From: Gammaproteobacteria bacterium
GTDB lineage: Bacteria; Pseudomonadota; Gammaproteobacteria; SZUA-229
Length of the DNA stretch: 64,000 nucleotides
NCBI GenBank assembly: GCA_029882215.1
Contig: JAOULC010000004.1
Coordinates: 61,701-125,700 of the forward strand
Direction of reading: 5' to 3'
A model generated the notes under the pieces. It was not told where the DNA came from, made no database searches, and saw nothing but the letters and a program-made list of their open reading frames with translations. The number at the start of each line of letters is the position of its first letter. The stretch's first letter is position 1. This document shows, in pieces, positions 1,317 to 44,545 of the stretch. A program made the translations under genes and the position numbers.

Positions 1317-2864
1317 CTAGCCCTGCATCTGTGTTGCCAGCTGCATAATTTCCTGCCGGTGTGTTACTGGCTTAAGCGCCAATAACTGTTTCATTAAGTC
1401 TCTGGCTTTATTTGCAGCTTCAAGGTGATACCAAAGCAGTTCAATTTCAAGAAGCCTGCAATGAACAGCATCAAATTCACCGTTATAACGACTATTCGCA
1501 TTATTAATCAGGCAATATGCCAGCTCATACTTTTGTAGCTTTATGGCTGACTGAGTTAATAATATCAACTCACCCGCCTGAGCAAGTACAAAATCTTTAG
1601 AAACCAGCTGACACTTTTCAGCATAACTCACAGCTGCAGAAAAACGCTGCGTATTTAATAATAAATAAATAACCAGACGCCCCACACATAAAAATGCCCG
1701 GCTGGGTTGCCACTGACTCATACGGTCAAAAAGCTCTTCATAAATTTCCACACTTCCCTGTTTATACTCAAAATCATCAAGCAATAATACAACAGCATCA
1801 CTGTCTCTTTCGGTTTGCACATAAGTATAGAGCTTACTTAAATGTGCCTCGCATTCACGCTCCGCGTTTTTGCTCCTTATCCTGTCATCAAACTGTTGTT
1901 TACCGCCAATATAACTGGCATCGAAGGTGTTTATATTACGACTATAGCGCCTGTAATTTATTTCTTCTTTTAATTCATCTTTGATATCCTGTCGTCTTTC
2001 CTTAAACCATAGCTTACCCAGAAAGTACCCGGTTATGCCGCCACTGACATGGGCAATAAGATTTACTCCTCCATTATTGCCGTCATTCAAAAGATCCCAG
2101 CTGTCCCAGCCTATATACCATAGCGCCAGAATCCAGGCCGGTATATAAACAGTTTTCAGAAAAGTAAAAAACCAGACAAACACCCTGATTTTAGCCTCTG
2201 GCATAAGATAAGCAGCGAGCCCGATCATGCCGCTAACAACTCCCGACAGACCCAGCGTAGGAACAGGATGGGTTCCGATGCTGATCAGTGAATAAGTAAT
2301 ATGTGTGCTAAAGGCAATAAGCAGTAAAGCTTTAATAAATTTCCAGCTATTGCTGATTAAGATTTCAAGCGCCGGAGTAAAGGCAAAGAAAAACAGCAGA
2401 TTAAAAAAAATATGCCCTAAGTCACCATGCGCCAGTGACGAAGTTATCATTTTTAACGGGTTCCATGAATCAGGATAATACATGATCGACTTATTAAGGC
2501 CACTGATCAGATCTTCTGAAAAAATCAGATAATGCTTTTCAATAAACTTAACAGTCATTCCCGTTGATCCAGAGTATAAGAGATTATCGCTAATAAACTG
2601 CTGCAGGTCCCAGTCATCCCGCAGGTAAACATGGATATCAGTGAGGATTTCTACGCATTCACGGCGACCATTTAACGGGCTTTCATTTAATCCCGGACTG
2701 TTTGCTTCAGAAAGAGACTGACAATACAGAGTTGCTGCCTGTAAAATCGTGCTGTTATTTTGATATTGCAGAAAAAAAATAACACTGCAAATTATCATTA
2801 CCGCGTAGGTAACGACCGGCAGTTTATTTAGCTTGAGCTCAGTACTATAAGGAATAAAAAACAT
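1317..2864 (-). CDS. Rhomboid-family intramembrane serine protease with extra N-terminal and long C-terminal helical (TPR-like) domain
   Basis: 515-aa ORF; rhomboid catalytic signatures GLSGVVSGMIG (GxSG) and AHVSGGITGYFLG (His helix); multiple TM helices; GGAG RBS 6 nt upstream of ATG. Confidence 0.7.
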   Translation of the reverse strand: MFFIPYSTELKLNKLPVVTYAVMIICSVIFFLQYQNNSTILQAATLYCQSLSEANSPGLNESPLNGRRECVEILTDIHVYLRDDWDLQQFISDNLLYSGSTGMTVKFIEKHYLIFSEDLISGLNKSIMYYPDSWNPLKMITSSLAHGDLGHIFFNLLFFFAFTPALEILISNSWKFIKALLLIAFSTHITYSLISIGTHPVPTLGLSGVVSGMIGLAAYLMPEAKIRVFVWFFTFLKTVYIPAWILALWYIGWDSWDLLNDGNNGGVNLIAHVSGGITGYFLGKLWFKERRQDIKDELKEEINYRRYSRNINTFDASYIGGKQQFDDRIRSKNAERECEAHLSKLYTYVQTERDSDAVVLLLDDFEYKQGSVEIYEELFDRMSQWQPSRAFLCVGRLVIYLLLNTQRFSAAVSYAEKCQLVSKDFVLAQAGELILLTQSAIKLQKYELAYCLINNANSRYNGEFDAVHCRLLEIELLWYHLEAANKARDLMKQLLALKPVTHRQEIMQLATQMQG

Positions 2865-3289
2865 ATCGCTCCGTGCTATGTTTATTGTTGCTATTTATTG
2901 TTATTGTGGCTTTATCTTATTCCATATCTCCACAGTATAAAAGCCATACGGGTATTTTAAAAAGTAAGTTTTTATACATTGTCGTAGCTAATCAGAGAGC
3001 GATTATTTGAAAAGCATACAATAACCATTCAAATATGAGCAGTATAAATAAAAAAGATAACAAAAACAGAGGGAAAACTGTTCAAAAAAACTCGGATAAC
3101 AAGTACCTGAGTTATTTATCTGGCTACGAAAGAGCAAGTAGCCACTTTTAACCGCTAGTGATATATACATGCAGCCGATAATAATGGACAGACGCTGATA
3201 TTTTATTTTTTAATTAGTACTCAGGCACAATGACAAACAACTCATACATGTATTGGTTACAAAATCAGGCATCCCTGCCAGCAACATCA

Positions 3290-4126
3290 CTACCAGCCGA
3301 ACATCATATTATCGACTAATAAATTTTGTCCATCATACTCATTTTTAGAGGCAACTATGAATTTCTGTGTTTGTTTACTGAAACGATTCAGAAGGTTATG
3401 TGCCGCCTGACTGCCCTTTTCACTCAGTAAAAATTGTGTTATTTCAGCTTGTTTTTCTGCACTAATTCGCGCACTAATGGTAATCCCCTGATTAGTCAGC
3501 ACCTGACTCTTAGCAATGACTTTTAAGCTGCTTCGTGCCTGTTGTTCCATATTGTTTTTGAAAAAGCTCTCTCTGAAAACAGCGGCATCACATTTTCCTG
3601 CTTTAAATGCAGCATATACTTTATTAAAGCCGTCTTTAATGGCGATGAACTTTGGTTGCTGCACCTGATTAGGAAACATAGAATAAACAGACAATGTACC
3701 AAGGTGTGGTGATGGTAATACGCAGATTTTACGTGATATTAAATCTTCTTTTGTATTAATTATCGAGTTGTCATTTTTTGTCACCAGAACAAAAGCTAAA
3801 TCACCGGGCAATCTGACCAATGGATTTGCATCAGTCTTATTAAAACGCCATGCAACAAAGTGCGGACCATCAAATACGAAATCATATTTACCTGATTTCA
3901 AAAACTTCTTGTACATTGACCAGTTACCAGGATGCACATACTTTACCTCTGCACCCATAATCCTGCTCAGTTCTGCAGTGAGTGATCCATAAGTTTTTAT
4001 GCCGTCTTCAGCACTCTCTCTGGGTGGTGCCGTGAAGTAGTATTCTGCTGCTGCTGTATTAATGCTTAAAACAGTCAGCACTGCGCTGCAAAATAACGAT
4101 TTCAATAGTTTGTTTGATTTATTCAT
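3290..4126 (-). CDS. Periplasmic PhnD-like (phosphonate-binding-type, PBP2) substrate-binding protein, paralog A; no transporter partner genes
   Basis: 278 aa, N-terminal signal peptide ending AAAEYYF; sequence pattern matches phosphonate-bd/PhnD-like family (Y..L...L....G..V..V......F.K.G.YDFVF.GPHFV.WR, GKCDAAVF); ~60% identical to ORF 5150..5989. Confidence 0.7.
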   Translation of the reverse strand: MNKSNKLLKSLFCSAVLTVLSINTAAAEYYFTAPPRESAEDGIKTYGSLTAELSRIMGAEVKYVHPGNWSMYKKFLKSGKYDFVFDGPHFVAWRFNKTDANPLVRLPGDLAFVLVTKNDNSIINTKEDLISRKICVLPSPHLGTLSVYSMFPNQVQQPKFIAIKDGFNKVYAAFKAGKCDAAVFRESFFKNNMEQQARSSLKVIAKSQVLTNQGITISARISAEKQAEITQFLLSEKGSQAAHNLLNRFSKQTQKFIVASKNEYDGQNLLVDNMMFGW

Positions 4127-4157
4127 TTAATTTTACCGGGTGTCAGAAACAAAGCAG

Positions 4158-4185
4158 GCTCTAACTCATCCGATAAGTATGAACT
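4158..4185 (-). promoter_or_regulatory. Conserved 28-nt upstream box (identical copy at 6022..6049) ~30 nt 5' of the paralog A start, followed by ATATTACC-N4-GGTAATAT palindrome (4192..4211)
   Basis: Exact 28/28 identity GCTCTAACTCATCCGATAAGTATGAACT (plus strand) in both upstream regions although flanking non-coding DNA has diverged; adjacent 8-bp-arm perfect inverted repeat. Confidence 0.55.
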
Positions 4186-4559
4186 TACCTTATATTACCA
4201 TACGGTAATATTATAAATTACTTACATTAAATCAGGTCATCTGCTGTGTATAAAAGCTAATAGGCAAAAAACTTCAAATATCAGGCAAAACTGTCTGGTT
4301 AATTTTTAAAGCGGTTTATAACAGTGAATCAACTTATATAATCATGAAATTAAAAAATAATCTGCTTGATTAGACAATAGAGATAATAAGCATTATTTTA
4401 TACTCACGGATAGAGCATCTCATTAATATCATGGTTAAATTAATGCCATCATATATTGTAAATATTCACAACTCGGCTGTGTCATTAACGCTCTAACAAT
4501 AAAAAATGCTATAGTTTATTTTAATTTAGATACATAAAAGCAATCACTAAGGAGATTGT

Positions 4560-4982
4560 ATGGCGGCAGTAAAAGAAATGTCCTGGCTAGGTATAGGCAT
4601 CAGGTTTTTAATCGCCTGGATTATCGTTTTCTCAAGTTATAACCCCAGTGGTTACTCATTTGTCAGCTGGGTACTTAATACTGAATCCGGCAATATTGTC
4701 TTTAAAGTCTTTATTGGTGTTACGCTTATCATTGGCTGGGCCATATATATTCGCGCAACCAGACGGTCATTGGGGATGATTGGAATTGTACTGGCCTTTG
4801 CTTTCTTTGCCGCATTACTTTGGTTATTAATCGACCTGAACATAATACCTGCAAATACAGCGAGCGCAGTTACTTATATCGTACTTTTTATTATTGGCTG
4901 CTTGCTTGCAACCGGCATGTGCTGGTCTCATATTCGTCGTCGGATTAGCGGTCAACTGGATGTTGATGAGATTGAGAGTTAA
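4560..4982 (+). CDS. Small integral membrane protein (4 predicted TM helices), function unknown
   Basis: 140-aa ORF with strong AAGGAG Shine-Dalgarno 8 nt upstream; four hydrophobic segments; sits between the two PhnD-like paralogs on opposite strand. Confidence 0.65.
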   Translation: MAAVKEMSWLGIGIRFLIAWIIVFSSYNPSGYSFVSWVLNTESGNIVFKVFIGVTLIIGWAIYIRATRRSLGMIGIVLAFAFFAALLWLLIDLNIIPANTASAVTYIVLFIIGCLLATGMCWSHIRRRISGQLDVDEIES

Positions 4983-5149
4983 ACTTCAGTTTTGAATTGT
5001 GTGAGTTCAATACACCTAATTAAAATAGTGAGCTCACCTATTCTTCGTAAAGCCAAGCCCGTCGAATAAAAGCGGGCAACCTGTTGGCCGTGTTCCCGGG
5101 CTATACACAAAGCAACAACAGTGTCACTGCCAGCCGCTCTACAATTGTT

Positions 5150-5989
5150 TTACCAGCCGAAAATCATATTATCGACCAACAGGTTCTGACCATCATATTC
5201 ATTTTTACTGGTGTAAATAAACTTTTTATTTTTCTTACTAAAGCGTTTTAACAAATTATCAGCTGCTTCACTGCCTTCTTTGCTCACCAGAAACTCTGCA
5301 ATTTTTTTCTGTTTATCTGCACTAACACGCTTACTGATTGTTATGCCCTGATTAGTCATGGTCGGGCTCGTAGCGAGCACTTTTAAAGCTTCACGTGCAT
5401 TGTCGTCCATGTTGTGCTTATAAAAACTCTCTCTGAAAACAGCCGCATCGCACTTACCTGCTTTAAAGCTCGCATATACCTTTTTAAAGCCGCCACCGGC
5501 ACTGGCAACAAATTTTGGCTGCTGCACCTGATTGGGAAACATGGAATAAATAGCCAGCGTTCCCAGATGAGGTGATGGTATCACACAGATTTTACGGGAA
5601 ATTAAATCTTCTTTTGTTTTAATCATATTGTTGTCTTTGGCTGCAACCAGAACAAAAGAAATATCACCCGGAAGGCGGACCAAAGGATCAACATCGGTAT
5701 TATTAAATCGCCAGGATACAAAGTGCGGCCCATCAAAAACAAAGTCGTAGTCTCCCGATTTCACAAACTTTTTATAAGTTGGCCAGTTTTTTGGATGCAC
5801 ATACTTCACTTCTGAGCCCATTATTTGGCTTAGTTTAGCAACCAATGGGCCATAGGTTTCAAGCCCTTTTGCAGCACTTTCTCGTGGCGGTGCTGTGAAA
5901 AGGTATTCTGCTGTCGCAGAGCTGATGAATAACACTGAAATAAGTGCACTAGAAGATAGCAAATTAATGAATTTGTTAATTTTTACCAT
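5150..5989 (-). CDS. Periplasmic PhnD-like substrate-binding protein, paralog B
   Basis: 279 aa with signal peptide (ATAEYLF); colinear with and ~60% identical to 3290..4126; same family signatures. Confidence 0.7.
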   Translation of the reverse strand: MVKINKFINLLSSSALISVLFISSATAEYLFTAPPRESAAKGLETYGPLVAKLSQIMGSEVKYVHPKNWPTYKKFVKSGDYDFVFDGPHFVSWRFNNTDVDPLVRLPGDISFVLVAAKDNNMIKTKEDLISRKICVIPSPHLGTLAIYSMFPNQVQQPKFVASAGGGFKKVYASFKAGKCDAAVFRESFYKHNMDDNAREALKVLATSPTMTNQGITISKRVSADKQKKIAEFLVSKEGSEAADNLLKRFSKKNKKFIYTSKNEYDGQNLLVDNMIFGW

Positions 5990-6021
5990 AATTCTTACCG
6001 ATGAGAATAATTATAAAGACT

Positions 6022-6049
6022 GCTCTAACTCATCCGATAAGTATGAACT
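6022..6049 (-). promoter_or_regulatory. Second copy of conserved 28-nt upstream box, followed by ATATTA ... TAATAT inverted repeat (6050..6085) enclosing CTGCTTAAATTAGCAG hairpin
   Basis: Identical 28-mer to 4158..4185 at equivalent distance (~32 nt) from the paralog B start codon. Confidence 0.55.
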
Positions 6050-6360
6050 ATATTAACTACTGCTTAAATTAGCAGGCAATAATATCACCTTTAGTTAAAA
6101 AAAGAGTTCATTTGGTAGCGCATTTTCTACACTTCATCGCGTATTCGACCGAACTGTAATTAGTGAGTGACAAAATTTGATCGAACATCTTGTTTACTAT
6201 TTTAACTCTACTGGCGCCTGCTAGTGCAAGCTATAGCGGAGACCGAATAGCCTAAATATTATAAGGTTTTAATTATTAGTGCTGTTAAAAAATAGAGATG
6301 TGATAATTGATAAGCGGCTAAAAAACAAACAGGAATTATCATAATAAAACCCGGAGCATC

Positions 6361-7197
6361 TCACTTATTTTTATATTTTCTTTTTGAATTTTTTTTACTG
6401 ATCGGGGTTGTTTTAGATTTGAATACCCTTCTTGACTTGCTTTTTTTAGCTGCTGGTTTGTCGGTTGTTTTTTTGGAATTGACAAGTGATTTATCAATTT
6501 CAGCCATTTCGTCTCTGGTCAGGTTTCTCCACTCCCCTGTTTTCAGCTTACCTAAGTGTACATTCATTATTCGTACACGCTTTAGCTTTGTCACCTCATA
6601 ACCCAGATATTCACACATCCTCCGAATCTGACGGTTAAGGCCTTCTGTAAGGATTATTTTAAAGACAAAACGACTTTGAATAGTCACTTTACAGCGCTTA
6701 GTCACGGTATCCAGAACAGGCACCCCCTGAGACATGAGTTCAACAAAGCGCTCTGTTAGTGGTTTGTTAACCGTAACAATGTACTCTTTATCATGGTCAT
6801 TACCTGCACGCAGAATCTTGTTAACGATGTCACCGTCGCTGGTGAGAAAAATCAAACCCTCTGAGGGCTTATCCAGCCGGCCAACAGGAAAAATTCGTTC
6901 GCGGTGTCCGATAGCATCGATGATATTACCGGCAATATTACGCTCTGTTGTACAGGTAATACCGACAGGTTTGTTATAGGCAATATAAATACGGTCTGAT
7001 TTATTAACCGCACTGGGCTTTATGCGCTTGCCATCTGCGATGACAATATCTATATCTGAAACTTTACTGCCCAATTCTGGCAGCTTACCATTAATTGTCA
7101 CTCTCTTTTGCTCTATAAGCTTATCCGCCTCGCGACGAGAACAAAAACCAGAGTCACTAATAAATTTATTTAGACGAATGCCGCTATCTGTATTCAA
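6361..7197 (-). CDS. rluF: 23S rRNA pseudouridine synthase RluF (S4 domain + RsuA/RluB/RluF catalytic domain, Lys-rich C-tail)
   Basis: 278 aa; near-colinear match to E. coli RluF (SVRLNKYISESG.CSRREAD, PVGRLDKDSEGLIFLT, NRQIRRMCE); basic C-terminal tail. Confidence 0.9.
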   Translation of the reverse strand: MNTDSGIRLNKFISDSGFCSRREADKLIEQKRVTINGKLPELGSKVSDIDIVIADGKRIKPSAVNKSDRIYIAYNKPVGITCTTERNIAGNIIDAIGHRERIFPVGRLDKPSEGLIFLTSDGDIVNKILRAGNDHDKEYIVTVNKPLTERFVELMSQGVPVLDTVTKRCKVTIQSRFVFKIILTEGLNRQIRRMCEYLGYEVTKLKRVRIMNVHLGKLKTGEWRNLTRDEMAEIDKSLVNSKKTTDKPAAKKSKSRRVFKSKTTPISKKNSKRKYKNK

Positions 7198-7304
7198 AGT
7201 ATATTACGCACTATAAAAATACTAGGGTATCATAAAAAACGTTCGGTTTAGTACTCTATACTATTTATACAGCAGCAGAAGCCCTGACACAGAATAAAGT
7301 CTTT

Positions 7305-10178
7305 TTATATACCCAGTTTCTGACTGATGCTTGCTAATAATTCTTTTGCATTGATTGGTTTTGTAACATAATCATCAAAACCGGCCGCCAGCCCCCTGTC
7401 AATATCTTTCTGCATAGCATTTGCACTCAATGCAACGACAACAATATCGCGGGTTTCCTTATGCTGTTTTAAATGTCTAAGCACATCAAACCCGTTCATT
7501 CCGGGCAGATTAATATCAAGCAGTATCAGGTCTGGCCGGTGCTCGATTGCAAGCTCTAATCCTAAGAACGGCTCATGCGCACTCCACATATGAATAGAGG
7601 GCTGGTGTGACAATAATAATTGCACTAATCTCAAATTAGTCGGGTTATCTTCAATATAAAGGACGTTATATTTTTTTCCCGGATCAGAATCATTATCCAT
7701 CTTTGTATCTCCATTTGATAGCGGCAACATCGGATAATATTGTGCCGGTTTCGACTTAGCATGATCTTCTGATGAATCACCGGCAGGTAATATAAACCAG
7801 AAAGTACTGCCGATACCCGGCTGACTATCCACACCAATTTTACCTTGCATTAATTCAATGAGGTTTTTAGTAATAACTAGACCTATTCCGGTGCCTTCTA
7901 TTTCAGACTGTTCAGCACCTAAGCGATTAAAAGGTTTAAATAACTGTACCTGCTGTTCATTTGTTAAACCAGCACCGCTATCAATAATACTGACGCGAGT
8001 ATAATCACAATCAGTCGTATCATAAGTAATGACAATAGAACCGTTCTCACTATTATATTTGACCGCATTACTCAGGAGATTTAAAAGCACCTGCTTCACT
8101 CTGGTACGATCACCCTTGACGATACTTCGCTGACATAATAATTCACTAACCGCTATGGCCGTGTCATTACGTTTAATAAAAATTGTCAGACCATGTTTTT
8201 CAGCTAAAGGTGTAATTAATTTAAGTGCTTCTTCTATCAGCTCTTCAAGTGAGATAGGTTCGATTGATAACTCTATCCGGCCTGATTCTATTTTAGTAAG
8301 GTCAAGTATTTCATTAATCAGTGCTAAAAGATGCTCGCCGCCCTTTTGTATTTCGTTAACGTACTCAGTCTGTACAGAACTTAAATCATCGCCATTTAAT
8401 TCCAGTAACTGACTAAAACCTATAATCGCATTAAGCGGTGTACGCAGCTCATGACTCATGCTGGACAGAAACTGGGATTTGGCATGATTAGCATTTTCTG
8501 CCTCATCACGTGCATCCAGCAGTGCCTTTTTGGCTAACTCCCTGGAAGTAATGTCGCGCAAAACACCAACGTAACCTGACCGTACATCCCCCTGCATTGG
8601 TGTTACATTCAGTTCCATCGGAAAAGAACTGCCGTCTTTTCGGCATCCCTTAAGATCTCTTGTTCGATGGATAATCCGGGGTTCATTCAATGCTGAATTT
8701 TTAGTGTACTCTTCATGCTCATCTCTCTCATCCTGATGAAGCAAGATTGATACATTTTTGCCGATAACTTCTTCAGATGTATAATTAAATATCTTTTCAG
8801 CTGCCGGGTTAAAGCCATCGATAATGCCGTGATCATCGATGGTAACAATGGCATCTGCAATGGCTTTGAAAACGGTTCTCTGTTGTGCTTCACTTTGCTC
8901 AAGAGAGCGGGTTCTTTCTGCAACCTGTGCTTCTAAATTATCGTTTAGATCACGCAGGTTTTTTTGCGAACTGTCAACCTGCTGAATCATACTTTCAAAT
9001 GAGCGCGCCAGTACTCCCACTTCATCATTCAAATACAGCGGCAAACTTTCCAGTGAGCTTTTATTATGCGAGTAATCATCGACTGCTGACGTCATTTGTT
9101 TTATAGGACGGGTAACACGCACAGATACAAGTATTGCAATACCAGTGGCTATAAAAGCCAGAATAAGACCCCATATTGCCATATCGTTAAGTACAGCTGA
9201 CTGACTGGCAACAATATCACCAAAAGCCTGACTCATGGTCACCGAGATATATCGCTCGGGTCGTAAAGGATCGAACAGAATTTTTGAAAATACTATAGCG
9301 TAGTCACTTTTGCTTTCATCAGGTTTGAGTACATGGTGCATTTTTTTATTTTCTGGCAGAAACAGCTTAGCAAGACGGGGAATATCTTCCTGTATACGAT
9401 AACGTTTACCCAGATCAAAACCATAGGTTTTACTTTTATCAGGATGCAGTAAATAACCACCCTGATCGTTTGTTATATAAATATTTCGTCCGGTTTTCTC
9501 AATCTCATTATGAATCTTTTGTAACTCTTCACCAATTTCAGTAGTAATCAGAACAATTCCGGCTACAGCGCCCGTTCTGTTATCATATACTGGTGTCGAA
9601 GTCCGCATAACCTGACGGTGAGGCTGGCTAACTTTTCCATATTCGCGGTTAAGGTTTATTTCCGATAAATATACAGCACCACTTTCTAATTTCATTGCTT
9701 CAATAAAATAACGTCTTTTTTTCTTACTTTGTAATCGTTCATCACTCATTGCCGCTATTTTTTTAGTTTCAAAATTGCGCTCAACGACAATTAACTCCTG
9801 GCCATTTTTATCGATAAACCGAAGTGTAAGGTAGGATTTTTTACTATTTATTACCGTTGTAAAAATTGACTCCAGACGTAATTTCCACTGCGTAAATGTT
9901 GACTGACCTATCGCATCATAATTATTCGAACTTTTAGCCCGGATAATACCCTGAATCGGCGGTGTTTCAGATAAAATCAATACCTCTGCATACAGATCCT
10001 CAATTTTACTTTGTAGCCGGTTCCCGGTATTTTGAATCTCGGCTTCAATCGCGCTGAAGGTATTTTCTACTAATATATTAGAAATTTTAGTATAGAAAAG
10101 ACCGCCGATAACACTACTGGTCAGCAATACAACCAGCACTGTACTTAAGCTAAACTTATGAACAATCGATAACTTCAT
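7305..10178 (-). CDS. Hybrid sensor histidine kinase: TM - large periplasmic Cache-like domain - TM - HAMP - PAS - HisKA - HATPase_c - C-terminal REC
   Basis: 957 aa; H-box [15 protein letters not shown]-boxes GTGIGL, receiver with LILLDINLPGMNG; two TM segments flanking ~300-aa periplasmic region. Confidence 0.9.
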   Translation of the reverse strand: MKLSIVHKFSLSTVLVVLLTSSVIGGLFYTKISNILVENTFSAIEAEIQNTGNRLQSKIEDLYAEVLILSETPPIQGIIRAKSSNNYDAIGQSTFTQWKLRLESIFTTVINSKKSYLTLRFIDKNGQELIVVERNFETKKIAAMSDERLQSKKKRRYFIEAMKLESGAVYLSEINLNREYGKVSQPHRQVMRTSTPVYDNRTGAVAGIVLITTEIGEELQKIHNEIEKTGRNIYITNDQGGYLLHPDKSKTYGFDLGKRYRIQEDIPRLAKLFLPENKKMHHVLKPDESKSDYAIVFSKILFDPLRPERYISVTMSQAFGDIVASQSAVLNDMAIWGLILAFIATGIAILVSVRVTRPIKQMTSAVDDYSHNKSSLESLPLYLNDEVGVLARSFESMIQQVDSSQKNLRDLNDNLEAQVAERTRSLEQSEAQQRTVFKAIADAIVTIDDHGIIDGFNPAAEKIFNYTSEEVIGKNVSILLHQDERDEHEEYTKNSALNEPRIIHRTRDLKGCRKDGSSFPMELNVTPMQGDVRSGYVGVLRDITSRELAKKALLDARDEAENANHAKSQFLSSMSHELRTPLNAIIGFSQLLELNGDDLSSVQTEYVNEIQKGGEHLLALINEILDLTKIESGRIELSIEPISLEELIEEALKLITPLAEKHGLTIFIKRNDTAIAVSELLCQRSIVKGDRTRVKQVLLNLLSNAVKYNSENGSIVITYDTTDCDYTRVSIIDSGAGLTNEQQVQLFKPFNRLGAEQSEIEGTGIGLVITKNLIELMQGKIGVDSQPGIGSTFWFILPAGDSSEDHAKSKPAQYYPMLPLSNGDTKMDNDSDPGKKYNVLYIEDNPTNLRLVQLLLSHQPSIHMWSAHEPFLGLELAIEHRPDLILLDINLPGMNGFDVLRHLKQHKETRDIVVVALSANAMQKDIDRGLAAGFDDYVTKPINAKELLASISQKLGI

Positions 10179-10223
10179 AGGTTTTTGTCCGTTACCACTA
10201 CAGCCCGGCAGACCTGTTCAGAA

Positions 10224-11123
10224 TTATTCTGCATAAGCCTCCACTTTCAGTTTTTTCATTAGTGTATTGACAACACTATAGTTGTGCGCCGGCACCCAGC
10301 CAATGTATTTACCCGCTTTTGCAGCCAGGGTCTCAGGTTCCAGCGACAGGAGTATTTGCTGTATCTGCTGTTGCAGTTTTTGCGGAACGTTTCGCATTGC
10401 GGCAAAGCTCCACTCTGGGTACAGCTCTGTACTAAGAAAAAAAGGAAAGCTCTCTATATCTTTATTATTAAGAATACGAAAATATCTGAGATCAATTTCA
10501 CCGGTTGACTCCATATTTTCAAGCGTATCAGTTCGCACTACACCTACATCGGCTATACTATCCCTGACTGCCCGGACAACTTCCTGATGGGTTCTTGACT
10601 TACTAAACAATAATTTACGGGCGTCTTTGTACGGATCAAAATCATTTTTAAGCATCTCATACCACGCCATGCGCCAGCCACCAAATGCTGACTCTGATAC
10701 CGCCATCAGAACTTTGTCTTTAAAGTCTGATATTTTAATAATATTTTCATTACGCACATGGGTAAAGATCACCGATCCAAACTGATCCTGAGCTGTATTC
10801 GCGCGTTTATTGTTTAACGTAACCAATGCAGTTGCTCCGTATAATTGGTCTATTTCAACAAAAGATGACGGGTTAGTTAATACAAAATCAAACTCATGCT
10901 GACCTGCCAGTTTTGTTAATTCCTCCAGTTTTAATACAGGCATAAGGAAGAATCTATGCTCTGGGAATTGTGCATTCAGCACATTGACTGTTTGCTGCCA
11001 CTGTTGCTTGGCCTTTTCAATGCCATGATGTGCCCTGACAGCAATCCGGTATTCTTTAGCCAGCAAGCCCTGAGACAGAAATATGCACATCATTATCATA
11101 AGGGCTTTAATTGCTGGTCTCAT
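10224..11123 (-). CDS. Periplasmic PhnD-like substrate-binding protein, predicted co-sensor, co-transcribed upstream of hybrid kinase 7305..10178
   Basis: 299 aa with signal peptide; PhnD/phosphonate-bd family pattern (YRIAV..., SESAFGGW, DVGVVRTD); 45-nt gap to downstream kinase on same strand. Confidence 0.75.
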   Translation of the reverse strand: MRPAIKALMIMMCIFLSQGLLAKEYRIAVRAHHGIEKAKQQWQQTVNVLNAQFPEHRFFLMPVLKLEELTKLAGQHEFDFVLTNPSSFVEIDQLYGATALVTLNNKRANTAQDQFGSVIFTHVRNENIIKISDFKDKVLMAVSESAFGGWRMAWYEMLKNDFDPYKDARKLLFSKSRTHQEVVRAVRDSIADVGVVRTDTLENMESTGEIDLRYFRILNNKDIESFPFFLSTELYPEWSFAAMRNVPQKLQQQIQQILLSLEPETLAAKAGKYIGWVPAHNYSVVNTLMKKLKVEAYAE

Positions 11124-11369
11124 TACTGATCTCGGTGATTATTGCTTTAAAAGAGATGCCGTTAAATATAAATATTTACTAGTATTGATTCATAGTTTAG
11201 TACAAGTATCCGGTCTTTTCTGTCGTCGATATAAATATAGTAATATTATGATATACCTGTTCTTTAACTATCACTACTGTATAAGTAGCGCATAGCAGGC
11301 TCCTTAAGTTTTTGATTTATTTGACTAATTAAACGCTTCTGTGCAGGACTAATAAGAGCACTGCACGGC

Positions 11370-11843
11370 TTAAGGTGATTCATACCACTCAAGCATGCCT
11401 GATCCTGGCTTCAGGTCCTTCCATTGTTCAATATCAAAGCTGATACAACAAAGACCCGCTGTATTAAAAGTAAGCGTTTCACCCGTCAGGCTATTGGCTA
11501 ATTCAGACCAGGTAGGTTCATGACCTACCAGCATAACAACCTTGTCGTTTTCACTGAGGTGCTTGAATAATTCAAACAGCACGTTAACTGTGGTGTTATA
11601 AAGTGCATCTGTAACGGTACTGTCACACTCCCACTGCCCTGCCATCATTGCCAGATTCATGGTTTCAACAGCCCGGCTGGCTGATGAACAGACCACCAGA
11701 TCCGGGTGAATGTCTTTTTCATTAAGCAATTCGCCCATGAATTTTGCCTGCTGTATACCATGTTTGGTCAGGGTTCTTTCATGGTCACTGGGAGCATCCA
11801 TTCCGGACTTTGCATGACGAAAAATTAAAAGTGTGTGTGACAT
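11370..11843 (-). CDS. sixA: Phosphohistidine phosphatase SixA (histidine phosphatase superfamily)
   Basis: 157 aa; RHG motif (LIFRHAKS), catalytic His in LVGHEP; size and pattern typical of SixA. Confidence 0.8.
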   Translation of the reverse strand: MSHTLLIFRHAKSGMDAPSDHERTLTKHGIQQAKFMGELLNEKDIHPDLVVCSSASRAVETMNLAMMAGQWECDSTVTDALYNTTVNVLFELFKHLSENDKVVMLVGHEPTWSELANSLTGETLTFNTAGLCCISFDIEQWKDLKPGSGMLEWYESP

Positions 11844-12623: not shown

Positions 12624-14447
12624 TTATTCTGTATGAAAACTATCATATATTAATTGTGCTAATGCCTTACTAATACCCGGTGTTTTAGCCAGATCTTCTA
12701 CACCCGCTTTGCTGACCGCCTGCAAGCCACCGAAGTGTTTTAGTATCGACTGACGCCTTTTAGCACCCATACCCGGTATCTGCTCCAGCTGCGATGTGGT
12801 TCTGGATTTTTGCCGCTTCGCACGGTGACCGGTGATTGCAAAGCGATGCGCTTCATCACGCACATGCAAAATTAAATTCAGAGCCATGGACTGCTGCCCG
12901 GGGTAAAGTTCCGTGCCATCGGTCATGACCAGCTTTTCAAGTCCGGCTTTTCTGCCCTCACCTTTGGCCACACCAATTAACAACACGTCTTCTATTTCCA
13001 GCTGATTCATTACTTCGATCGCCTGTGATAGCTGACCTTTACCACCGTCTATAAACAATATATCCGGTTTTTTGCCTTCGCTTTTTCGGATTTTTGCGTA
13101 ACGCCTTTTCAGTGCCTGTTTCATTGCCGCATAATCATCACCAGGCTCTATGCCTTCAATATTAAAACGACGATAATCGGTTTTTAACGGCCCTTCAGGT
13201 GTAAACACAACACAGGAAGCCACGGTGGCTTCGCCCATCGTATGGCTGATATCAAAACACTCTAATCTTGCGGGCATATGATCAAGGTGTAATAACGCCT
13301 GTAGTGCATCAAACCGTTTAATCATTCCTGCTGCGGAGTTAACCCGCGTGAGCAGCGCCTTTTGCGCATTCTGTCTGGCATTATCCAGCCAGTGCCTTCG
13401 GTCACTGCGCACCGAACTGGAAAGCATCACTTTCTTACCGCGTTTATCAGACAGCACCTCGGCAATGAGCTCATGGTCCGGCAGACTTTCACTTAGAATT
13501 ATTTCAGCCGGAATGTCGTTATTAAGATAATACTGCGGTAAAAAGGCATTTAATATATCAGCCTCCTGCATACTCTCAGGCAGCTTTGGAAAGAAACTTT
13601 TGGTACCAAGACTCTGACCATTTCTGATAAAAAATATTTCTACACAGGCGTGACCGGCATGTGTCGCACAGGCAATGACATCAATATCGCCGCCGGAGCC
13701 AGTCATGTACTGGCCTTCAATAACACTTTGTAAATAACTAATCTGATCTCTGAACTCAGCGGCTTTTTCAAACTGCAACAATGTAGCAGCCTGCTCCATC
13801 TGTGCGACCAGATCCTGAACCACTTTCTGGCTTTTACCTTCAAGAAACTGTGTGACATGTAAGATATCATTTGCATAATTATGCTGGCTAATGCTTTTAA
13901 CGCACGGTGCGGTACAGCGTTTAATTTGATATTGCAGACAGGGCCTGCTGCGATTTTTAAAATAGCTATCATCACACTGGCGAATGCGGAAGACTTTTTG
14001 TATCAGGTTCAGTGTTTCCCTGACGGCTCCGGCATTCGGATAAGGACCGAAATAGCGACCTTTTTTTCGTTTGGTGCCGCGGTGAAGCCTGAGCATCGGG
14101 TAATCGTCCTCCGTTGACAAAAACAAAAACGGATAACTTTTATCATCGCGTAAAAGAATGTTATATCGCGGCAGAAACTCTTTAATTAAATTACTTTCAA
14201 GAATTAATGCCTCACCTTCCGTATGTGTGATGGTTGTTTCAATGTTTATAATCTGTGAGACCAGCGACTGTGTTTTAGCACTTAAACCGGTATTTCTGAA
14301 ATAGCTGGACAGCCTTTTCTTGAGATCTTTCGCTTTACCAACGTATATTATCTCATTTTTTTCATTATACATCCGGTATACACCCGGCAATGAGCTGCAG
14401 TTTTTAAGATAATTTTTTGCATCGAAGGTTTGTGGTTTATCAGTCAT
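12624..14447 (-). CDS. uvrC: Excinuclease ABC subunit C (UvrC)
   Basis: 607 aa; N-terminal GIY-YIG (GVYRMY...IYVGKAKDLKKRLSSYF), UvrBC-interaction, RNaseH-like and C-terminal HhH regions; adjacent to uvrY as in enterobacteria. Confidence 0.95.
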   Translation of the reverse strand: MTDKPQTFDAKNYLKNCSSLPGVYRMYNEKNEIIYVGKAKDLKKRLSSYFRNTGLSAKTQSLVSQIINIETTITHTEGEALILESNLIKEFLPRYNILLRDDKSYPFLFLSTEDDYPMLRLHRGTKRKKGRYFGPYPNAGAVRETLNLIQKVFRIRQCDDSYFKNRSRPCLQYQIKRCTAPCVKSISQHNYANDILHVTQFLEGKSQKVVQDLVAQMEQAATLLQFEKAAEFRDQISYLQSVIEGQYMTGSGGDIDVIACATHAGHACVEIFFIRNGQSLGTKSFFPKLPESMQEADILNAFLPQYYLNNDIPAEIILSESLPDHELIAEVLSDKRGKKVMLSSSVRSDRRHWLDNARQNAQKALLTRVNSAAGMIKRFDALQALLHLDHMPARLECFDISHTMGEATVASCVVFTPEGPLKTDYRRFNIEGIEPGDDYAAMKQALKRRYAKIRKSEGKKPDILFIDGGKGQLSQAIEVMNQLEIEDVLLIGVAKGEGRKAGLEKLVMTDGTELYPGQQSMALNLILHVRDEAHRFAITGHRAKRQKSRTTSQLEQIPGMGAKRRQSILKHFGGLQAVSKAGVEDLAKTPGISKALAQLIYDSFHTE

Positions 14448-14613: not shown

Positions 14614-15279
14614 TTAGTTGTTGATATGTTCTTCAATATCATCATCCAGAATACCGTGCTGGATAGCCAGCCTCATCATTTCAACATCGTTCGTTACTCC
14701 CAGCTTCTCATGCAGTCGTTTACGGTAGGTACTGACCGTCTTCGGGCTGAGGTTTAACTTATCTGAAATAGTCGATGTACGCTGGCCCTGACTGATCATC
14801 AGCAGTACCTGCAGCTCTCGCTGCGACAAGGTGTCAATCGGCGAGTCATTGCCCGGCAGCATGGATAAGGCCAGCTGCTGTGCAATACTGGGAGCGATGT
14901 ACTTCAGTCCTTTTGAAACTTTATGTATCGCATCCACCATCTCCTGTACTTCGCAGCCCTTGGTTAAATAACCAACAGCACCGGCTTCAAGTAATCGTTT
15001 AGGCAATGGCCCGTCACTATGGACAGTAATGATAATGATTTTAGTATTGGGGCAGATAGTCTGTAAACGATGAGTGGCTTCAAAGCCACCGATTCCGGGC
15101 ATGTTGATATCCATCAGGATGACATCAGGGGGATCTATCCGGCATTTTTCCAGACACTCTTCACCACTGCTAACATCAGAAACGACCTCGATACCCAGCT
15201 GATTTTGCAATAAGCTTTTGATGCCAAATCTAACCAGATCATGATCATCTACCAACATAACACGAATAGCCATCAACAC
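14614..15279 (-). CDS. uvrY: Response regulator UvrY/GacA (REC + LuxR-type HTH)
   Basis: 221 aa; MLVDDHDLVRFG receiver start, D54 region ILMDINMPG, C-terminal LuxR HTH; conserved uvrY-uvrC synteny. Confidence 0.9.
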   Translation of the reverse strand: MLMAIRVMLVDDHDLVRFGIKSLLQNQLGIEVVSDVSSGEECLEKCRIDPPDVILMDINMPGIGGFEATHRLQTICPNTKIIIITVHSDGPLPKRLLEAGAVGYLTKGCEVQEMVDAIHKVSKGLKYIAPSIAQQLALSMLPGNDSPIDTLSQRELQVLLMISQGQRTSTISDKLNLSPKTVSTYRKRLHEKLGVTNDVEMMRLAIQHGILDDDIEEHINN

Positions 15280-17084: not shown

Positions 17085-19919
17085 TTAAAAAGCGCCGCCG
17101 ACTTTAAGGTAATAATATTCATCACCGGTTTCATCCAGTCCCTGTGCATAACCCAGACGGATTTGCGGTGTAAAATTATAAAAAAAATTAAGATCGATCA
17201 GCCACTCCACACCGACACTTTGCAACGGTTTTTTATCCTGACCATCAAACCAGCTAGCACCTGTTTCGGCAAACAGCCTGCCAGAGTGCTTCATAATACC
17301 TACAGGGGGTGCCATAATGCCTTTTTCAACATGCCGTAATGGAAAGCGCCACTCGATGGAAGCCAGCTGCAGATGATTACCCATTTGAGTATTATCAGCA
17401 TAGCCGCGCAATGCAAAGTGACGTTTATTAAATGTCGTGCGGGAATATTGGGGGTTAAGTAGTGTTACTGAATCCCAGTCACTCTCTAAGCCACCAATTG
17501 TGTAGGCTCGCATGTCAGGATCTGCACTGGCTGTTACGTATCTTAAGGCCAAGCTGTGGTGTGAACCAAGCCTGAAATATTCGCGCCAGTCGAGAGTGGT
17601 CGCTGTGCCTGAATAATCACTGCTGAATACATCACTACTCTCTGTTACCAGCAACACATCTCTGCCAGTTTCAGGGCTGTTACCTTTCATAAATGACTGT
17701 TTACTGTCATAAAAGATGCTGAACCCCAACAAATCATCACTTTGATCCAGAAAGCCGGTGACACCGCTGGCACGATAAACATCTGCTTCATGATTATCGA
17801 TCAGGCCCAAACTTAATCGCCAGCGACTTTTTAAGCTAGTGAACGGTAAAGAAAAACGTAATTGTGCCTGACGGTTGGTTCTGATGATATCTGTCAGCCC
17901 CGTTGAATGATTTGAGAAAAGGCTGTTTTCTCTGGCGACGACAAAGCCCAGCCAGTTATCATACTGATACAGTAAGGAGCCGGTCAGGTCAGACTGTTCA
18001 TAGCCGTAAGCCAGATTGAGCTGATAATAATGGTTGTCTAATGAATCATTTGAAGATGTTATAAAACCAATCTCACTGGCTTTATCCTGCAGCACCAGCC
18101 ATGGAAACCAGTATTTAGGGATAAGGTCCGGCCAGGGAGAATACTCCTTAAACGTGTATGTTAATGTGTCATCTGGCAAAGGCTCATTAAAACGAATGAG
18201 CCGCTTCACGGCTGGCTTTAACTGCGGTGGATGGCTTGCTTGCAGGTCCGTTGAATGAATCGTATAGCCGTCTCTTGCAAATAACTGATAATACAGGCGC
18301 TCATTATGCAGCACAGGAGAAAACGCACCGCTAACAACATTAGTCAGCGGCGTAAAAACAGCAGAATTAAATGGCTTAACATATATATTGTAAACACCGC
18401 TTATATCACTGCTAAATAAAACAGCAGACTGATCAGGCGTATATCGCGCCTGCATAAAATTGGCGTTATCTGCAACCAGCTGGCTCCAGTTTGATGATGT
18501 TAAGTCAAACTCATGGATTCCCCATTTTGTATTCAGCTCTTTTTTGCTAACCAGTAGCCTGCCTCTTTCATCAGACCAGTCGAGGCTACTGACAACATCA
18601 CCATATTGTCCGCTCCATAATGTTTTTATCAGTTGTGCATTTTGATCCAGTAAATCAATCTGCGGAACGGAAGCAACTGTCCTCGCTGCAAGCAAATGAC
18701 CGGTCTTTTTTACAACGGTAATGTTTTTATAGCGAGAGCACTTAGTCAGCTGCTCAAGCTGTTGTGTTACCAGACTGTAACGGTATAGATCATAGTAAAT
18801 ACTATATTCGTCGCAGAATTCCGGCTGTGAAATATAGATCAGATTATCTTCGCCAACACTAAAGTAACTGTCTCTGTTTAATTCAATTAATGCTGTCTTC
18901 TTTGTATTTTTCAGCAGCATTAATTGTGAAACAGTTTCATAGTTATCTTCGATATAAAGCATTGCTCCATCATCCATGAACTGGATAACCGATAATTGAT
19001 GCGGCTGATTAACAATAACAACATCCGGCTTGGATTTTACCGCTTCAAGTGCTGATATCTGTCCGCTAAAACGATGCGTAAGATAGAGTTTAAACTCGTC
19101 CCATAGCTGCGATATATCTTTGCCAAAAACACGTTTGCTGTTTGAGTTTATTGAAAATGGCACGATGTTATCACTGTAAAGCTGAATCATTTTATTAATG
19201 GATTCAATACCGTAGCGGTCTTTTAAAAACTGATAGAAAAAAACACCATACAGATAATGTCGCCCCAGTGGCTGACTATCAACCGGCAAGTTCACCGTCT
19301 CCACCGCCAGCAAGCCTTGCCTTATCTCTTCCCGCATCAGCATTTCAAAACCGCTGCTTTGTCCTCTGCCAATACCCTCATGGGTTTCATAATGCGTCGC
19401 CAGACCCTCAATAAGCCATTTTGGTTGCAGGATATTTGGAAACAGTAGAAGATAACGGCCAAACACTTTTCGCAGAGAAGACACCTTGCCGACAGATTTA
19501 TCCAGATGAAAAATATGTGTCAGCTCATGCTCAATCAATAATGTTAACCAGTCATCATAATCTTCAAGCTGGGCGGGTTTATCCGCCGGTGAAAGCTGCA
19601 ACACCATTCTGTTGAAGGGGTAAGGTGTAGCACTGCCATTTGCCCAATCCTGATCATCTGAAACAACAATGCTTATTTTATCTTTGGGTGTCCATGCCAG
19701 TTTTTGTTGCAGTTCAAGATAGAATTTTTCAGCAATAAATGCAGAGCGCTTTGCCTGAGCTCGGTATGCCTCAAGATAGTGAACATTAAAGTGTTCGCTA
19801 ACTAAGGTTTCCCAGTGAGCTGAAGGGTTCGCGGCTAATGCAGATGAGGTATTAAAAACAAAAAAGATTAATAGAAAACGCGTCATCCATAAGTACATAG
19901 TAATATTATATTTCCGCAA
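17085..19919 (-). CDS. Outer-membrane protein with N-terminal HExxH zinc-peptidase-like domain, central TolB-like beta-propeller, and C-terminal Omp85-type beta-barrel
   Basis: 944 aa; signal peptide (…SSALA); HELTH motif ~aa 130; PD40-like repeats (DWSDERGRLLV, YTPDQSAVLFSSDISGVYNIYV); C-terminal aromatic-terminal barrel signature …YYLKVGGAF. Confidence 0.6.
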   Translation of the reverse strand: MRKYNITMYLWMTRFLLIFFVFNTSSALAANPSAHWETLVSEHFNVHYLEAYRAQAKRSAFIAEKFYLELQQKLAWTPKDKISIVVSDDQDWANGSATPYPFNRMVLQLSPADKPAQLEDYDDWLTLLIEHELTHIFHLDKSVGKVSSLRKVFGRYLLLFPNILQPKWLIEGLATHYETHEGIGRGQSSGFEMLMREEIRQGLLAVETVNLPVDSQPLGRHYLYGVFFYQFLKDRYGIESINKMIQLYSDNIVPFSINSNSKRVFGKDISQLWDEFKLYLTHRFSGQISALEAVKSKPDVVIVNQPHQLSVIQFMDDGAMLYIEDNYETVSQLMLLKNTKKTALIELNRDSYFSVGEDNLIYISQPEFCDEYSIYYDLYRYSLVTQQLEQLTKCSRYKNITVVKKTGHLLAARTVASVPQIDLLDQNAQLIKTLWSGQYGDVVSSLDWSDERGRLLVSKKELNTKWGIHEFDLTSSNWSQLVADNANFMQARYTPDQSAVLFSSDISGVYNIYVKPFNSAVFTPLTNVVSGAFSPVLHNERLYYQLFARDGYTIHSTDLQASHPPQLKPAVKRLIRFNEPLPDDTLTYTFKEYSPWPDLIPKYWFPWLVLQDKASEIGFITSSNDSLDNHYYQLNLAYGYEQSDLTGSLLYQYDNWLGFVVARENSLFSNHSTGLTDIIRTNRQAQLRFSLPFTSLKSRWRLSLGLIDNHEADVYRASGVTGFLDQSDDLLGFSIFYDSKQSFMKGNSPETGRDVLLVTESSDVFSSDYSGTATTLDWREYFRLGSHHSLALRYVTASADPDMRAYTIGGLESDWDSVTLLNPQYSRTTFNKRHFALRGYADNTQMGNHLQLASIEWRFPLRHVEKGIMAPPVGIMKHSGRLFAETGASWFDGQDKKPLQSVGVEWLIDLNFFYNFTPQIRLGYAQGLDETGDEYYYLKVGGAF

Positions 19920-43900: not shown

Positions 43901-44545
43901 GAACAGAAAAGAAGTATTTCACAGACTTTTGAGCCACCAGAGGATATGAAAGCGCTAATTAATCTCGATGTAAAAGGTGGTATTCATCGCATTGGCGGTA
44001 ATGCTAATGCCTATCGGAAACAATTGAAACGCTTCAGCAAAAACTATGCTGATTGCACCACGGAATTGCAACGTTTTATTGATAAAGAAGGCACGCAGCA
44101 GGCCGAGGGTTACTGCCATGCACTTAAAGGTGTTACCGGTAATATTGGGGCAAAAAAGCTTCATGAAAAAGTAACAGAGCTTGATGATTTACTCAAACAG
44201 AATCAGATTCCAGAGAAGACAGCCTTAAATGAAATGGAGGTTTTACTACAAGCTGTACTCAGTGATATTGAAAGTTTATTAGAAACCTCAGATACCTCAA
44301 TGTCAGTCGACTGTGAGCCTCTGAAGGCGATAGAATTACATAACCTTCTGCAGAAATTACTAAATGCTCTGGAAACCGATCTGGGAGCTGTCGAAACATT
44401 AGTTATTAAGCTTCAGCACGGCCTGACTGACAGCGACCAAAAGGCCGCAATAGAAGCAATAGCGCGTCAGATTGACTGCTTTGACACAGATACCGCTATT
44501 GATTTAATTAACCAATTTCAGTCTGAATTAAACATTACAAATTAA
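40940..44545 (+). CDS. Hybrid sensor histidine kinase: TM - small periplasmic domain - TM - HAMP - GAF - HisKA - HATPase_c - REC - REC - Hpt
   Basis: 1201 aa; [16 protein letters not shown]-box; [18 protein letters not shown]; two receiver domains ([13 protein letters not shown]; [12 protein letters not shown]); C-terminal Hpt ([12 protein letters not shown]). Confidence 0.9.

Follow-up and report, generated by a model that had tools for sequence, protein, structure and literature searches.

Two orphan PhnD-fold binding proteins of a gammaproteobacterium belong to an uncharacterised PF12974 clade without transporter linkage

Introduction

The PhnD fold of periplasmic binding proteins is found in several described systems, which differ in what the bound ligand is used for. 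XAC2383 of Xanthomonas citri (PDB 5UB3-5UB7) is said to be the periplasmic receptor of the diguanylate cyclase XAC2382, reportedly described by Teixeira et al. 2018 (J Biol Chem 293:10767, cited in PMC12271599). PhnD of Escherichia coli (PDB 3P7I), PtxB and HtxB are linked to phnC/phnE, ptx or htx genes, and E. coli PhnD holds its phosphonate ligand in a cage formed by Y47, Y93, S127-T128-S129 and H157 (mature numbering; PMC5908839, PMC5700983). AioX, ArrX and ArxX are sensors of arsenic oxyanions, AioX and ArrX are encoded in a conserved X-S-R gene cluster, and the pocket of AioX is built from Tyr88, Cys106, Tyr131, Ser161, Ser163, His192 and Asp210 (PMC5908839). BstB of Methylococcus capsulatus (PDB 7T1M) always occurs together with bstA (RND), bstC and sterol synthesis genes (PMC10942540). 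Non-transport precedents in the same fold are the sensors AioX and ArrX, the cyclase receptor XAC2383 and the sterol carrier BstB. Here, we analyzed two genes for substrate-binding proteins (SBP1 and SBP2), which have the Pfam family and the class II fold with two lobes in common with PhnD, PtxB and HtxB and flank a gene for a small membrane protein in a 64-kb stretch of contig JAOULC010000004.1 of a gammaproteobacterium (assembly GCA_029882215.1; the whole stretch is called the window in the following).

A different kind of precedent is provided by the Bug/TTT (tripartite tricarboxylate transporter) receptors of Bordetella and by AdpC, which are over-represented orphan solute receptors, as cited in PMC8050422. 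The likeness consists in many stand-alone paralogous binding-protein genes per genome without adjacent membrane components. In contrast, the fold family (TctC, PF03401) and the transporter class are different, and the analogy is limited to genome organisation. An earlier sequence-only reading of the window had described the two SBP genes and the gene between them as a possible unit of orphan phosphonate/phosphite-type binding proteins with a membrane partner, and its claims are taken up below where the results bear on them.

Results

SBP1 and SBP2 belong to a distinct, uncharacterised clade of PF12974, whose members are Sec-exported proteins of about 275 amino acids (aa) encoded by stand-alone genes and whose conserved trait is the orphan state, that is, the lack of linkage to transporter genes. 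Both proteins match the PF12974 profile (Phosphonate-bd) over its full length (profile positions 1-242) with an E-value of 3e-27 and 96 bits each, compared with a cut-off of 27, and both have the two-lobe class II periplasmic binding-protein structure. The N-termini read as Sec-type signals with a basic n-region, a hydrophobic core and the motif AAA/EY or ATA/EY. The description as secreted paralogs with the PF12974 fold was therefore borne out by profile search, signal sequences and BLASTP, and all three open reading frames (ORFs) were recovered exactly where the sequence-only reading had placed them (Table 1). The identity between the two copies had been put at about 60%; BLASTP gives 70% identity and 85% similarity.

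A profile of 45 members retrieves 251 clusters (50% identity, E <= 1e-30), almost all of which are single-domain proteins of 265-340 aa. Across sequences that are only 37% identical, 27 positions are invariant. The N-terminal motif APPRE, located directly after the first strand, is invariant as well, and further motifs of the clade are DGPHF..WR, R185 and the pair N212-Q213 at the cleft. Exactly two cysteines are present in the mature part of 115 out of 118 members (C135 and C179), which probably form a structural disulfide. Furthermore, the chain ends exactly with [ILVM][FWY]GW-COOH in 110 of 120 members (residues 275-278 of SBP1 and 276-279 of SBP2), and these last four residues have a predicted local distance difference test (pLDDT) value below 50 in an AlphaFold2 (AF2) model that is otherwise confident (pLDDT 92.3). 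The strictly terminal position of this aromatic motif suggests docking to a partner, e.g. a PDZ-type domain, or a recognition signal.

Hosts and gene neighbourhoods were analyzed with the best 80 of 232 loci that were confirmed in GTDB species representatives, each taken with flanks of up to 8 kb. All 80 loci belong to Gammaproteobacteria of sulfur-oxidiser lineages, and the carriers include Thiohalophilus, with T. thiocyanatoxydans DSM 16326 as a cultured member, as well as Thioalkalispiraceae, Thiohalomonadales, Ectothiorhodospiraceae and Chromatiales; one divergent clade member also has relatives in the Acidiferrobacteraceae. Several metagenome-assembled genomes contain two or three clade copies on different contigs.

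The inspected DNA comprised the 64 kb of the host genome and about 13 kb per related locus. ORFs in the flanks were called and clustered, recurrent neighbours were sought, and the resulting counts rest on 76 loci. No ORF of the window combines a Walker A motif with LSGG, and a Pfam scan of 27 window ORFs gave no match to a transporter family of the ATP-binding cassette (ABC) type; these are motif and profile tests and not a complete permease search. Within three genes of the SBP, an ORF resembling an ABC ATPase was found at 0 of 76 family loci, and the ABC ATPase motif occurs anywhere in the flanks in only 1 of 862 ORFs. Six further neighbourhoods labelled with Pfam families have no ABC transporter gene beside the SBP, and the nearest ABC ATPase genes are located ~7.5 kb away at the edges of these loci. 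This sets the clade apart from PhnD, PtxB and HtxB, since phnC/phnE, ptx or htx genes are not located nearby at any locus examined. The earlier statement that ABC permease and ATPase genes are absent from the surroundings holds for its ATPase part across the window and the 76 related loci, as judged by motif and Pfam tests, and a phnCDE-type operon was not encountered in the relatives (0/76 loci with an ABC ATPase-like ORF within three genes). Because no ABC ATPase-like gene is present within three genes at these loci and precedents exist in the same fold, the proposal of that reading that the proteins do not act as components of a dedicated transporter is reasonable.

A Pfam scan of the 111 immediate neighbours returned 120 different families, none of them at more than three loci. 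Two neighbours recur in the clustered flanks. A divergently transcribed gene for a 566-aa protein is found at 29 of 76 loci (e.g. L061:5849-7549, minus strand, and L095:4097-5953, plus strand; loci L026-L095), and it is followed by a gene for a secreted DsbH/DUF255 thioredoxin-like protein, which is present at 30 loci. The 566-aa protein has no match in Pfam, NCBIfam or PDB, and the window contains no homologue of either protein. As tatC, rpoD and dnaG are located in the same stretch, we read these recurrent neighbours as core-genome synteny, and the 566-aa protein was rejected as a functional partner, because it is inseparable from the inherited synteny of one order.

The public record of SBP1 (MDH5423929.1) is named phosphate/phosphite/phosphonate ABC transporter substrate-binding protein, and the sequence-only reading had also assigned both proteins to the phosphonate/phosphite-binding type. 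The fold part of this assignment stands with PF12974; the ligand part does not. The NCBIfam model of PhnD (TIGR03431) scores 26.6 and 24.6 bits compared with a cut-off of 261.1, about a tenth, TIGR01098 reaches 27.6 and 27.5 bits compared with 112.05, about a quarter, and the residues that contact the ligand in PhnD are replaced. Alignment of the family profile with E. coli PhnD by hhalign (probability 92.8%) places Y47 at the invariant W69 and Y93 at the variable position 109, and S127, T128, S129 and H157 correspond to L142 (invariant), G/S143, T/A144 and F/M167. Using the PhnD equivalences of PMC5908839, the pocket positions of AioX hold W69, G87, a variable residue, L142, T144, F167 and R185 in the clade. 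A separate alignment with HtxB equates N205-D206 with N212-Q213 and W52, which caps the ligand in HtxB (PMC5700983), with the invariant W69. Judged from these alignments, the conserved cleft positions indicate ligand binding, and the oxyanion cage of PhnD appears to be gone from the clade. Upstream of 79 family genes, a Pho-box was not enriched over shuffled sequence and a k-mer enrichment analysis returned AT-rich words only. Since the scores are sub-threshold, the binding residues are lost and transporter genes are absent, the public label is probably an over-annotation, and this would apply to the whole clade of at least 250 sequence clusters.

Foldseek searches against the PDB returned ArrX, PtxB, HtxB, BstB, XAC2383, AioX and PhnD, all with E < 1e-13. 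In the structural comparison the highest values were obtained for XAC2383 (21.6; a receptor paired with a diguanylate cyclase), the arsenate sensor ArrX (19.7), the sterol binder BstB (18.3) and the arsenite sensor AioX (16.5), followed by the ABC-linked binding proteins PhnD1, GpxB, PtxB and HtxB (about 16) and PA3383 (14.2). The four best matches are PhnD-fold proteins without ABC service, an order that the conformational state of the model may help to shape. XAC2383 is described as one half of a receptor-cyclase pair, whereas SBP1 and SBP2 stand alone and the sequence identity is 10-12%; no GGDEF gene is located beside SBP1 or SBP2, and GGDEF was found in 2 of the 111 immediate neighbours of the family loci. 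AioX and ArrX keep the Tyr/Ser-x-Ser/His oxyanion pocket, together with Cys106 in AioX, whereas SBP1 and SBP2 have neither this pocket nor an adjacent kinase. A cluster with histidine kinase and response regulator (XSR) does not accompany SBP1 and SBP2 in the window, where the nearest kinase pairs with another PF12974 gene, SBP3 (Table 1). BstB is about 14-15% identical to the clade, its gene context was not seen here, and clustering of the flank genes revealed neither an RND nor a TatT-like neighbour that recurs.

One protein among the 150 best library hits hints at a link to signalling. In P0295 (682 aa), a Ser/Thr kinase of the Hanks type and a single transmembrane segment are accompanied by a C-terminal, extracytoplasmic clade domain (E 2e-66), which carries the motifs APPRE, DGPHF..WR, C..C and NQ. 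It is the sole fusion of this kind that was found, and the same intact ORF is present in two independent JGI metagenomes (L112:5579-7627 and L113:6001-8049). We take this fusion as a Rosetta-stone hint of an extracytoplasmic sensor role of the domain.

Both SBP copies are under strong purifying selection, with a ratio of nonsynonymous to synonymous substitution rates (dN/dS) of 0.10 between SBP1 and SBP2 and of 0.04-0.10 in comparison with orthologues; synonymous sites are saturated in these comparisons (dS 1.2-3.6). Among the other family members, 61 mature positions reach a conservation of at least 80%, and SBP1 and SBP2 differ at only three of these. The positions predicted to be equivalent to pocket residues are the same in both copies, save for G165D in SBP1 (codon 165, window 3634-3636) beside pocket position F167. 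Position 165 neighbours the residue equivalent to PhnD His157, and among 45 aligned members SBP1 is the only one with an Asp at this near-invariant Gly. At positions 48 and 165, SBP1 has S and D in place of the P and G of the family. It is the more divergent copy in all pairwise comparisons and the most divergent of the four copies in two genomes (the window and a close relative, Logan sample SRR25639990, contigs L007 and L012), and by these sequence comparisons it is the faster-evolving paralog. As the predicted pocket positions are nearly identical, the copies are without visible divergence in ligand specificity. The comparison does not point to a large shift in specificity between them, and the divergence of SBP1 seems to be mild at most, so that the earlier picture of a divergently evolved pair is not supported at the level of the pocket. 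A lineage-specific tandem duplication is the best explanation for the origin of the pair.

The two genes share a 28-nt element, AGTTCATACTTATCGGATGAGTTAGAGC, which is located ~35 nt before each SBP start codon and is also present in the relative (L012:1-32, L012:1990-2020 and L007:1-26). The four gene copies in the two genomes agree at every position of its 26-nt core, and because the synonymous coding sites are saturated at the same time, the element is under selection. According to a folding calculation, the 28-mer alone can form a hairpin of 4 + 6 bp with a CGG triloop (-5.8 kcal/mol), and two G.U pairs of this hairpin would be mismatches in a DNA palindrome. In longer leaders CUUAUCGG of the element can pair with CCGGUAAG just before the start codon. 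The z-scores of leader RNA folding are non-significant (-0.8 to -1.9), and four identical copies leave no room for covariation. In Rfam, neither the leader nor any other part of positions 2800-11500 matched a known RNA family at E <= 1. A 22-mer of the element had no match in JGI metagenome contigs; an 18-mer had 15 matches, none of them next to an SBP homologue, which we attribute to chance or an unrelated locus. A sigma-70 promoter scan gave no more sites than shuffled sequence and none that was convincingly placed. By eye, the element agrees only poorly with sigma-E, sigma-54, sigma-28, Pho-box or Fur-box sites, and these readings were rejected. The element is a candidate for a leader RNA structure, possibly a CsrA-type site, or for an operator, and its GGAUG core presumably recalls CsrA/RsmA sites. 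Most simply, it probably means that the paralogs are co-regulated. Since each SBP gene has its own upstream element and a terminator-like hairpin follows SBP2 (Table 1), the earlier view that each gene is monocistronic is plausible. A gene for a response regulator with REC and GerE/LuxR domains is located beside uvrC in the window, which we take to be the classical UvrY/GacA position; this would presumably imply a post-transcriptional system of the Gac/Csr type. Such a system, if present, bears on the idea of a leader element.

The 140-aa protein encoded between the SBP genes belongs to DUF6524 (PF20134; E 3.7e-46, 156.6 bits compared with a cut-off of 27, profile positions 2-130 of 131). The AAGGAG ribosome-binding site of its gene and the four membrane helices of its product, both noted in the sequence-only reading, were recovered; the site is located 5 nt ahead of the ATG, and the helices are placed at 9-25, 46-71, 73-92 and 101-130 in an AF2 model with a pLDDT of only 65; hydropathy agrees on the number of four. 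The family comprises 287 homologues, many of them 70-90% identical, with the invariant motifs YNPxxxS, RATxxSLG and WSHxRRxxxGQxDVD. A literature search found no paper that mentions DUF6524. Genes for sulfur oxidation, namely flavocytochrome c sulfide dehydrogenase (FCSD) and DsrC, are among the neighbours of DUF6524 in relatives.

Besides the window, the same three-gene layout occurs only in the near relative SRR25639990. On contig L007, a rhomboid gene comes after an SBP1 orthologue (79% identical), the same order as in the window, and on L012 a DUF6524 gene (91%) is convergent with an SBP2 orthologue (84.6% identical to SBP2). Both contigs end at the same repeated upstream element and were therefore joined. 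A tblastn search found DUF6524 within 8 kb of the SBP at 0 of the 80 best family loci. Six SBP homologues (43-60% identical) have unrelated neighbourhoods, none of which contains DUF6524, and two DUF6524 homologues (73-79% identical) are located in unrelated contexts with no SBP nearby. Moreover, three other genomes contain tandem SBP pairs (53-75% identical), which are directly adjacent, 89-272 nt apart, with nothing between them. As SBP loci lack DUF6524, DUF6524 relatives are found elsewhere and tandem pairs occur without an insert, the DUF6524 gene is independent of the SBP genes, a highly conserved bystander that came by chance to lie between the copies in this lineage. The arrangement of SBP, DUF6524 and SBP is a local accident of gene order and no functional unit, and the suggestion that a duplicated SBP pair and a small membrane partner form one has to be given up.

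Two more PF12974 genes, SBP3 and SBP4, are present in the window (Table 1). Both were considered as further copies of the clade and rejected: a BLASTP comparison of SBP3 with SBP1 gives E 6.9, and the match of SBP4 to the family profile is remote (hhalign, 19% identity). Judged by sequence, they are separate PF12974 branches. The SBP3 gene is located 45 nt upstream of a gene for a hybrid histidine kinase, and the two look like a split sensor pair of binding protein and kinase. A gene for a 157-aa protein of the histidine-phosphatase superfamily, which we presume to be SixA-like, lies just upstream of SBP3. The SBP4 gene abuts a gene for a hybrid kinase with two receiver domains, which is followed by a gene for a PAS hybrid kinase. 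This architecture is that of an AioX/AioS-type sensor, and SBP4 fits this type far better than SBP1 and SBP2 do. Two PF12974 genes are in operons with hybrid kinases, so that the fold serves signalling in this organism; as far as SBP1 and SBP2 are concerned, this provides context but no proof.

Two other genes of the window may be mentioned. A rhomboid gene is located directly downstream of SBP1 on the same strand, an adjacency that is kept in the relative (L007:1329-2903), and the product has a long C-terminal extension without Pfam match. An ORF of 944 aa remained without a Pfam match at E <= 1e-4.

Table 1. Positions of the SBP genes, their putative signals and other genes of the window
Feature	Position	Strand	Description
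SBP1	3290-4126	-	278 aa, secreted PF12974-fold protein
DUF6524 gene	4560-4982	+	140 aa, four-helix inner-membrane protein
SBP2	5150-5989	-	279 aa, secreted PF12974-fold protein, SBP1 paralog
Shine-Dalgarno AAGGAG of DUF6524 gene	4549-4554	+	5 nt before ATG at 4560
Terminator-like hairpin	5111-5131	-	19 nt past SBP2 stop codon; consensus scan only
28-nt conserved element, copy 1	4158-4185	-	~35 nt upstream of SBP1 start codon
28-nt conserved element, copy 2	6022-6049	-	~35 nt upstream of SBP2 start codon
SBP3	10224-11123	-	PF12974, similar to TtrS tetrathionate-sensor domain (NF040750, E 4e-40)
Hybrid histidine kinase	7305-10178	-	Cache-type sensor, HAMP, PAS, HisKA, HATPase, REC
Histidine-phosphatase-superfamily protein	11370-11843	-	157 aa, His_Phos_1
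SBP4	39978-40940	+	PF12974 E 4.6e-50; ArrX/HtxB-like, E about 1e-9
Hybrid kinase	40940-44545	+	sCache-HAMP-GAF, two receiver domains
PAS hybrid kinase	44554-47406	+	three receiver-domain matches
uvrC	12624-14447	-	
Response regulator	14614-15279	-	REC + GerE/LuxR
Rhomboid-domain protein	1317-2864	-	515 aa
ORF without Pfam match	17085-19919	-	944 aa

Discussion

The reading that we favour, tentatively and with a probability of roughly 0.4, is that SBP1 and SBP2 bind a small ligand without phosphorus and relay its presence, perhaps via the GW tail, to a membrane signalling protein whose gene is located elsewhere. Each SBP would close around a small periplasmic ligand, which would not be an oxyanion of the phosph(on)ate type, because the cleft is predicted to be lined by W69, L142, F167, R185, N212 and Q213. 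By analogy with AioX, ArrX and XAC2383, the ligand state might then be passed on to the signalling protein, and no cargo would be delivered to a dedicated ABC permease. The two copies have the same predicted pocket, save for G165D, and an identical upstream element, so that they are probably co-regulated and may sense the same or a very similar ligand.

Several observations weigh against this reading. The clade genes are not located beside a sensor kinase or cyclase gene, unlike those of AioX, ArrX, XAC2383, TorT and LuxP, and signalling genes are not enriched in the neighbourhoods, where GGDEF is as rare as stated above (2/111) and no histidine-kinase family is among the 25 most frequent families. 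The kinase fusion represents a single lineage, and free-standing proteins account for all of the 120 sequences most closely related to its domain. In addition, the pocket residues were mapped by profile alignment at ~18% identity and not from coordinates, and with 64 kb and ~13 kb per locus inspected, a permease of the ABC, TRAP (tripartite ATP-independent periplasmic) or TTT type may be located farther away.

This last point leads to the possibility that the SBPs serve transport in trans, feeding an ABC permease (PhnCE-like) or another permease encoded elsewhere, like the orphan SBPs of the Bug/TTT family or additional SBPs that use one common ABC permease. SBPs of ABC transporters have the same fold and belong to the same Pfam family, and Bug/TTT and AdpC are known examples of orphan SBPs with many copies and few shared permeases, as cited in PMC8050422; the extent of the inspected DNA, both in this genome and at the related loci, also leaves room for this explanation. 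However, the complete lack of linkage to ABC ATPase genes at 76 loci would be unusual if this whole clade of 250 or more clusters had transport as its ancestral function, the canonical oxyanion-binding residues are lost and a Pho-box signal is missing. In structure, the proteins are closest to members of the fold that do not serve transport, and one clade member is fused to a kinase. Taken together, we regard transport in trans as unlikely.

A more far-reaching proposal goes beyond a receptor role of the two proteins and assumes that the clade represents free periplasmic receptors of a new class, which would occur specifically in sulfur-oxidising Gammaproteobacteria. Its ligand would be free of phosphorus and possibly related to the sulfur cycle or redox state, the invariant C-terminal tail would dock to a membrane signalling protein or PDZ-type partner whose gene is located elsewhere, several paralogs would converge on one transducer, and in the lineage studied here both copies would also be controlled post-transcriptionally by the leader hairpin. 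We consider this combination of assumptions speculative and clearly unlikely as a whole.

Alternatively, the SBPs could be carriers or chaperones similar to BstB, which would shuttle a hydrophobic or amphipathic molecule from the inner to the outer membrane or back without ATP-driven import. The likeness to BstB in the structural comparison is in line with such a role, but it may reflect the partly open conformation of BstB (PMC10942540). Genes for RND (BstA-like) or BstC-like proteins or for lipid synthesis do not recur nearby, and the invariant polar and charged residues R36, E37, D86, H89, R94, R185, N212 and Q213 of the cleft region argue for a polar or anionic group of the ligand. We consider a carrier very unlikely.

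Highly improbable, in our view, is that the SBPs are periplasmic enzymes built on the binding-protein fold, like cyclohexadienyl dehydratase or THI5, perhaps with a substrate from the sulfur cycle or another periplasmic one. An unusually large number of invariant residues of catalytic type (R36, E37, D86, H89, R94, N212, Q213 and the two Cys) at 37% identity, the independence from transporters, weak sequence matches to AncCDT and the cyclohexadienyl dehydratase lineage and the carriers, which belong mainly to sulfur-oxidiser lineages, would be compatible with this idea. In contrast, a recurrent metabolic gene context is missing, the best structural matches are binders and not enzymes, the kinase fusion as an extracellular domain fits a sensor better, and the two Cys are more simply explained by a structural disulfide.

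Finally, a functional module of SBP, DUF6524 and SBP, in which the four-helix protein acts as docking partner or transducer of both SBPs, could be invoked from the arrangement kept in the one close relative available (L007 and L012) and from the strong ribosome-binding site and high conservation of DUF6524, but it is extremely improbable and already largely refuted by the gene-neighbourhood data, as DUF6524 is near 0 of the 80 SBP-family loci, its relatives at 73-79% identity are in unrelated contexts and tandem SBP pairs elsewhere have no gene between them, and as the gene itself is on the opposite strand with its own signals and the two families differ in distribution.

Experimental handles on the clade are the cultured Thiohalophilus thiocyanatoxydans, the C-terminal GW motif, the natural kinase fusion and the conserved leader element. 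The SBP pair is a variant of a known non-transport use of the binding-protein fold and no new kind of system, and the practical value of the analysis lies mainly in annotation. The label of a phosphonate ABC transporter protein would inflate estimates of phosphonate/phosphite uptake in metagenomes of sulfur-oxidising Gammaproteobacteria. Furthermore, the clade extends the growing list of PhnD-fold proteins that are re-used for sensing or carrying and not for ABC import.

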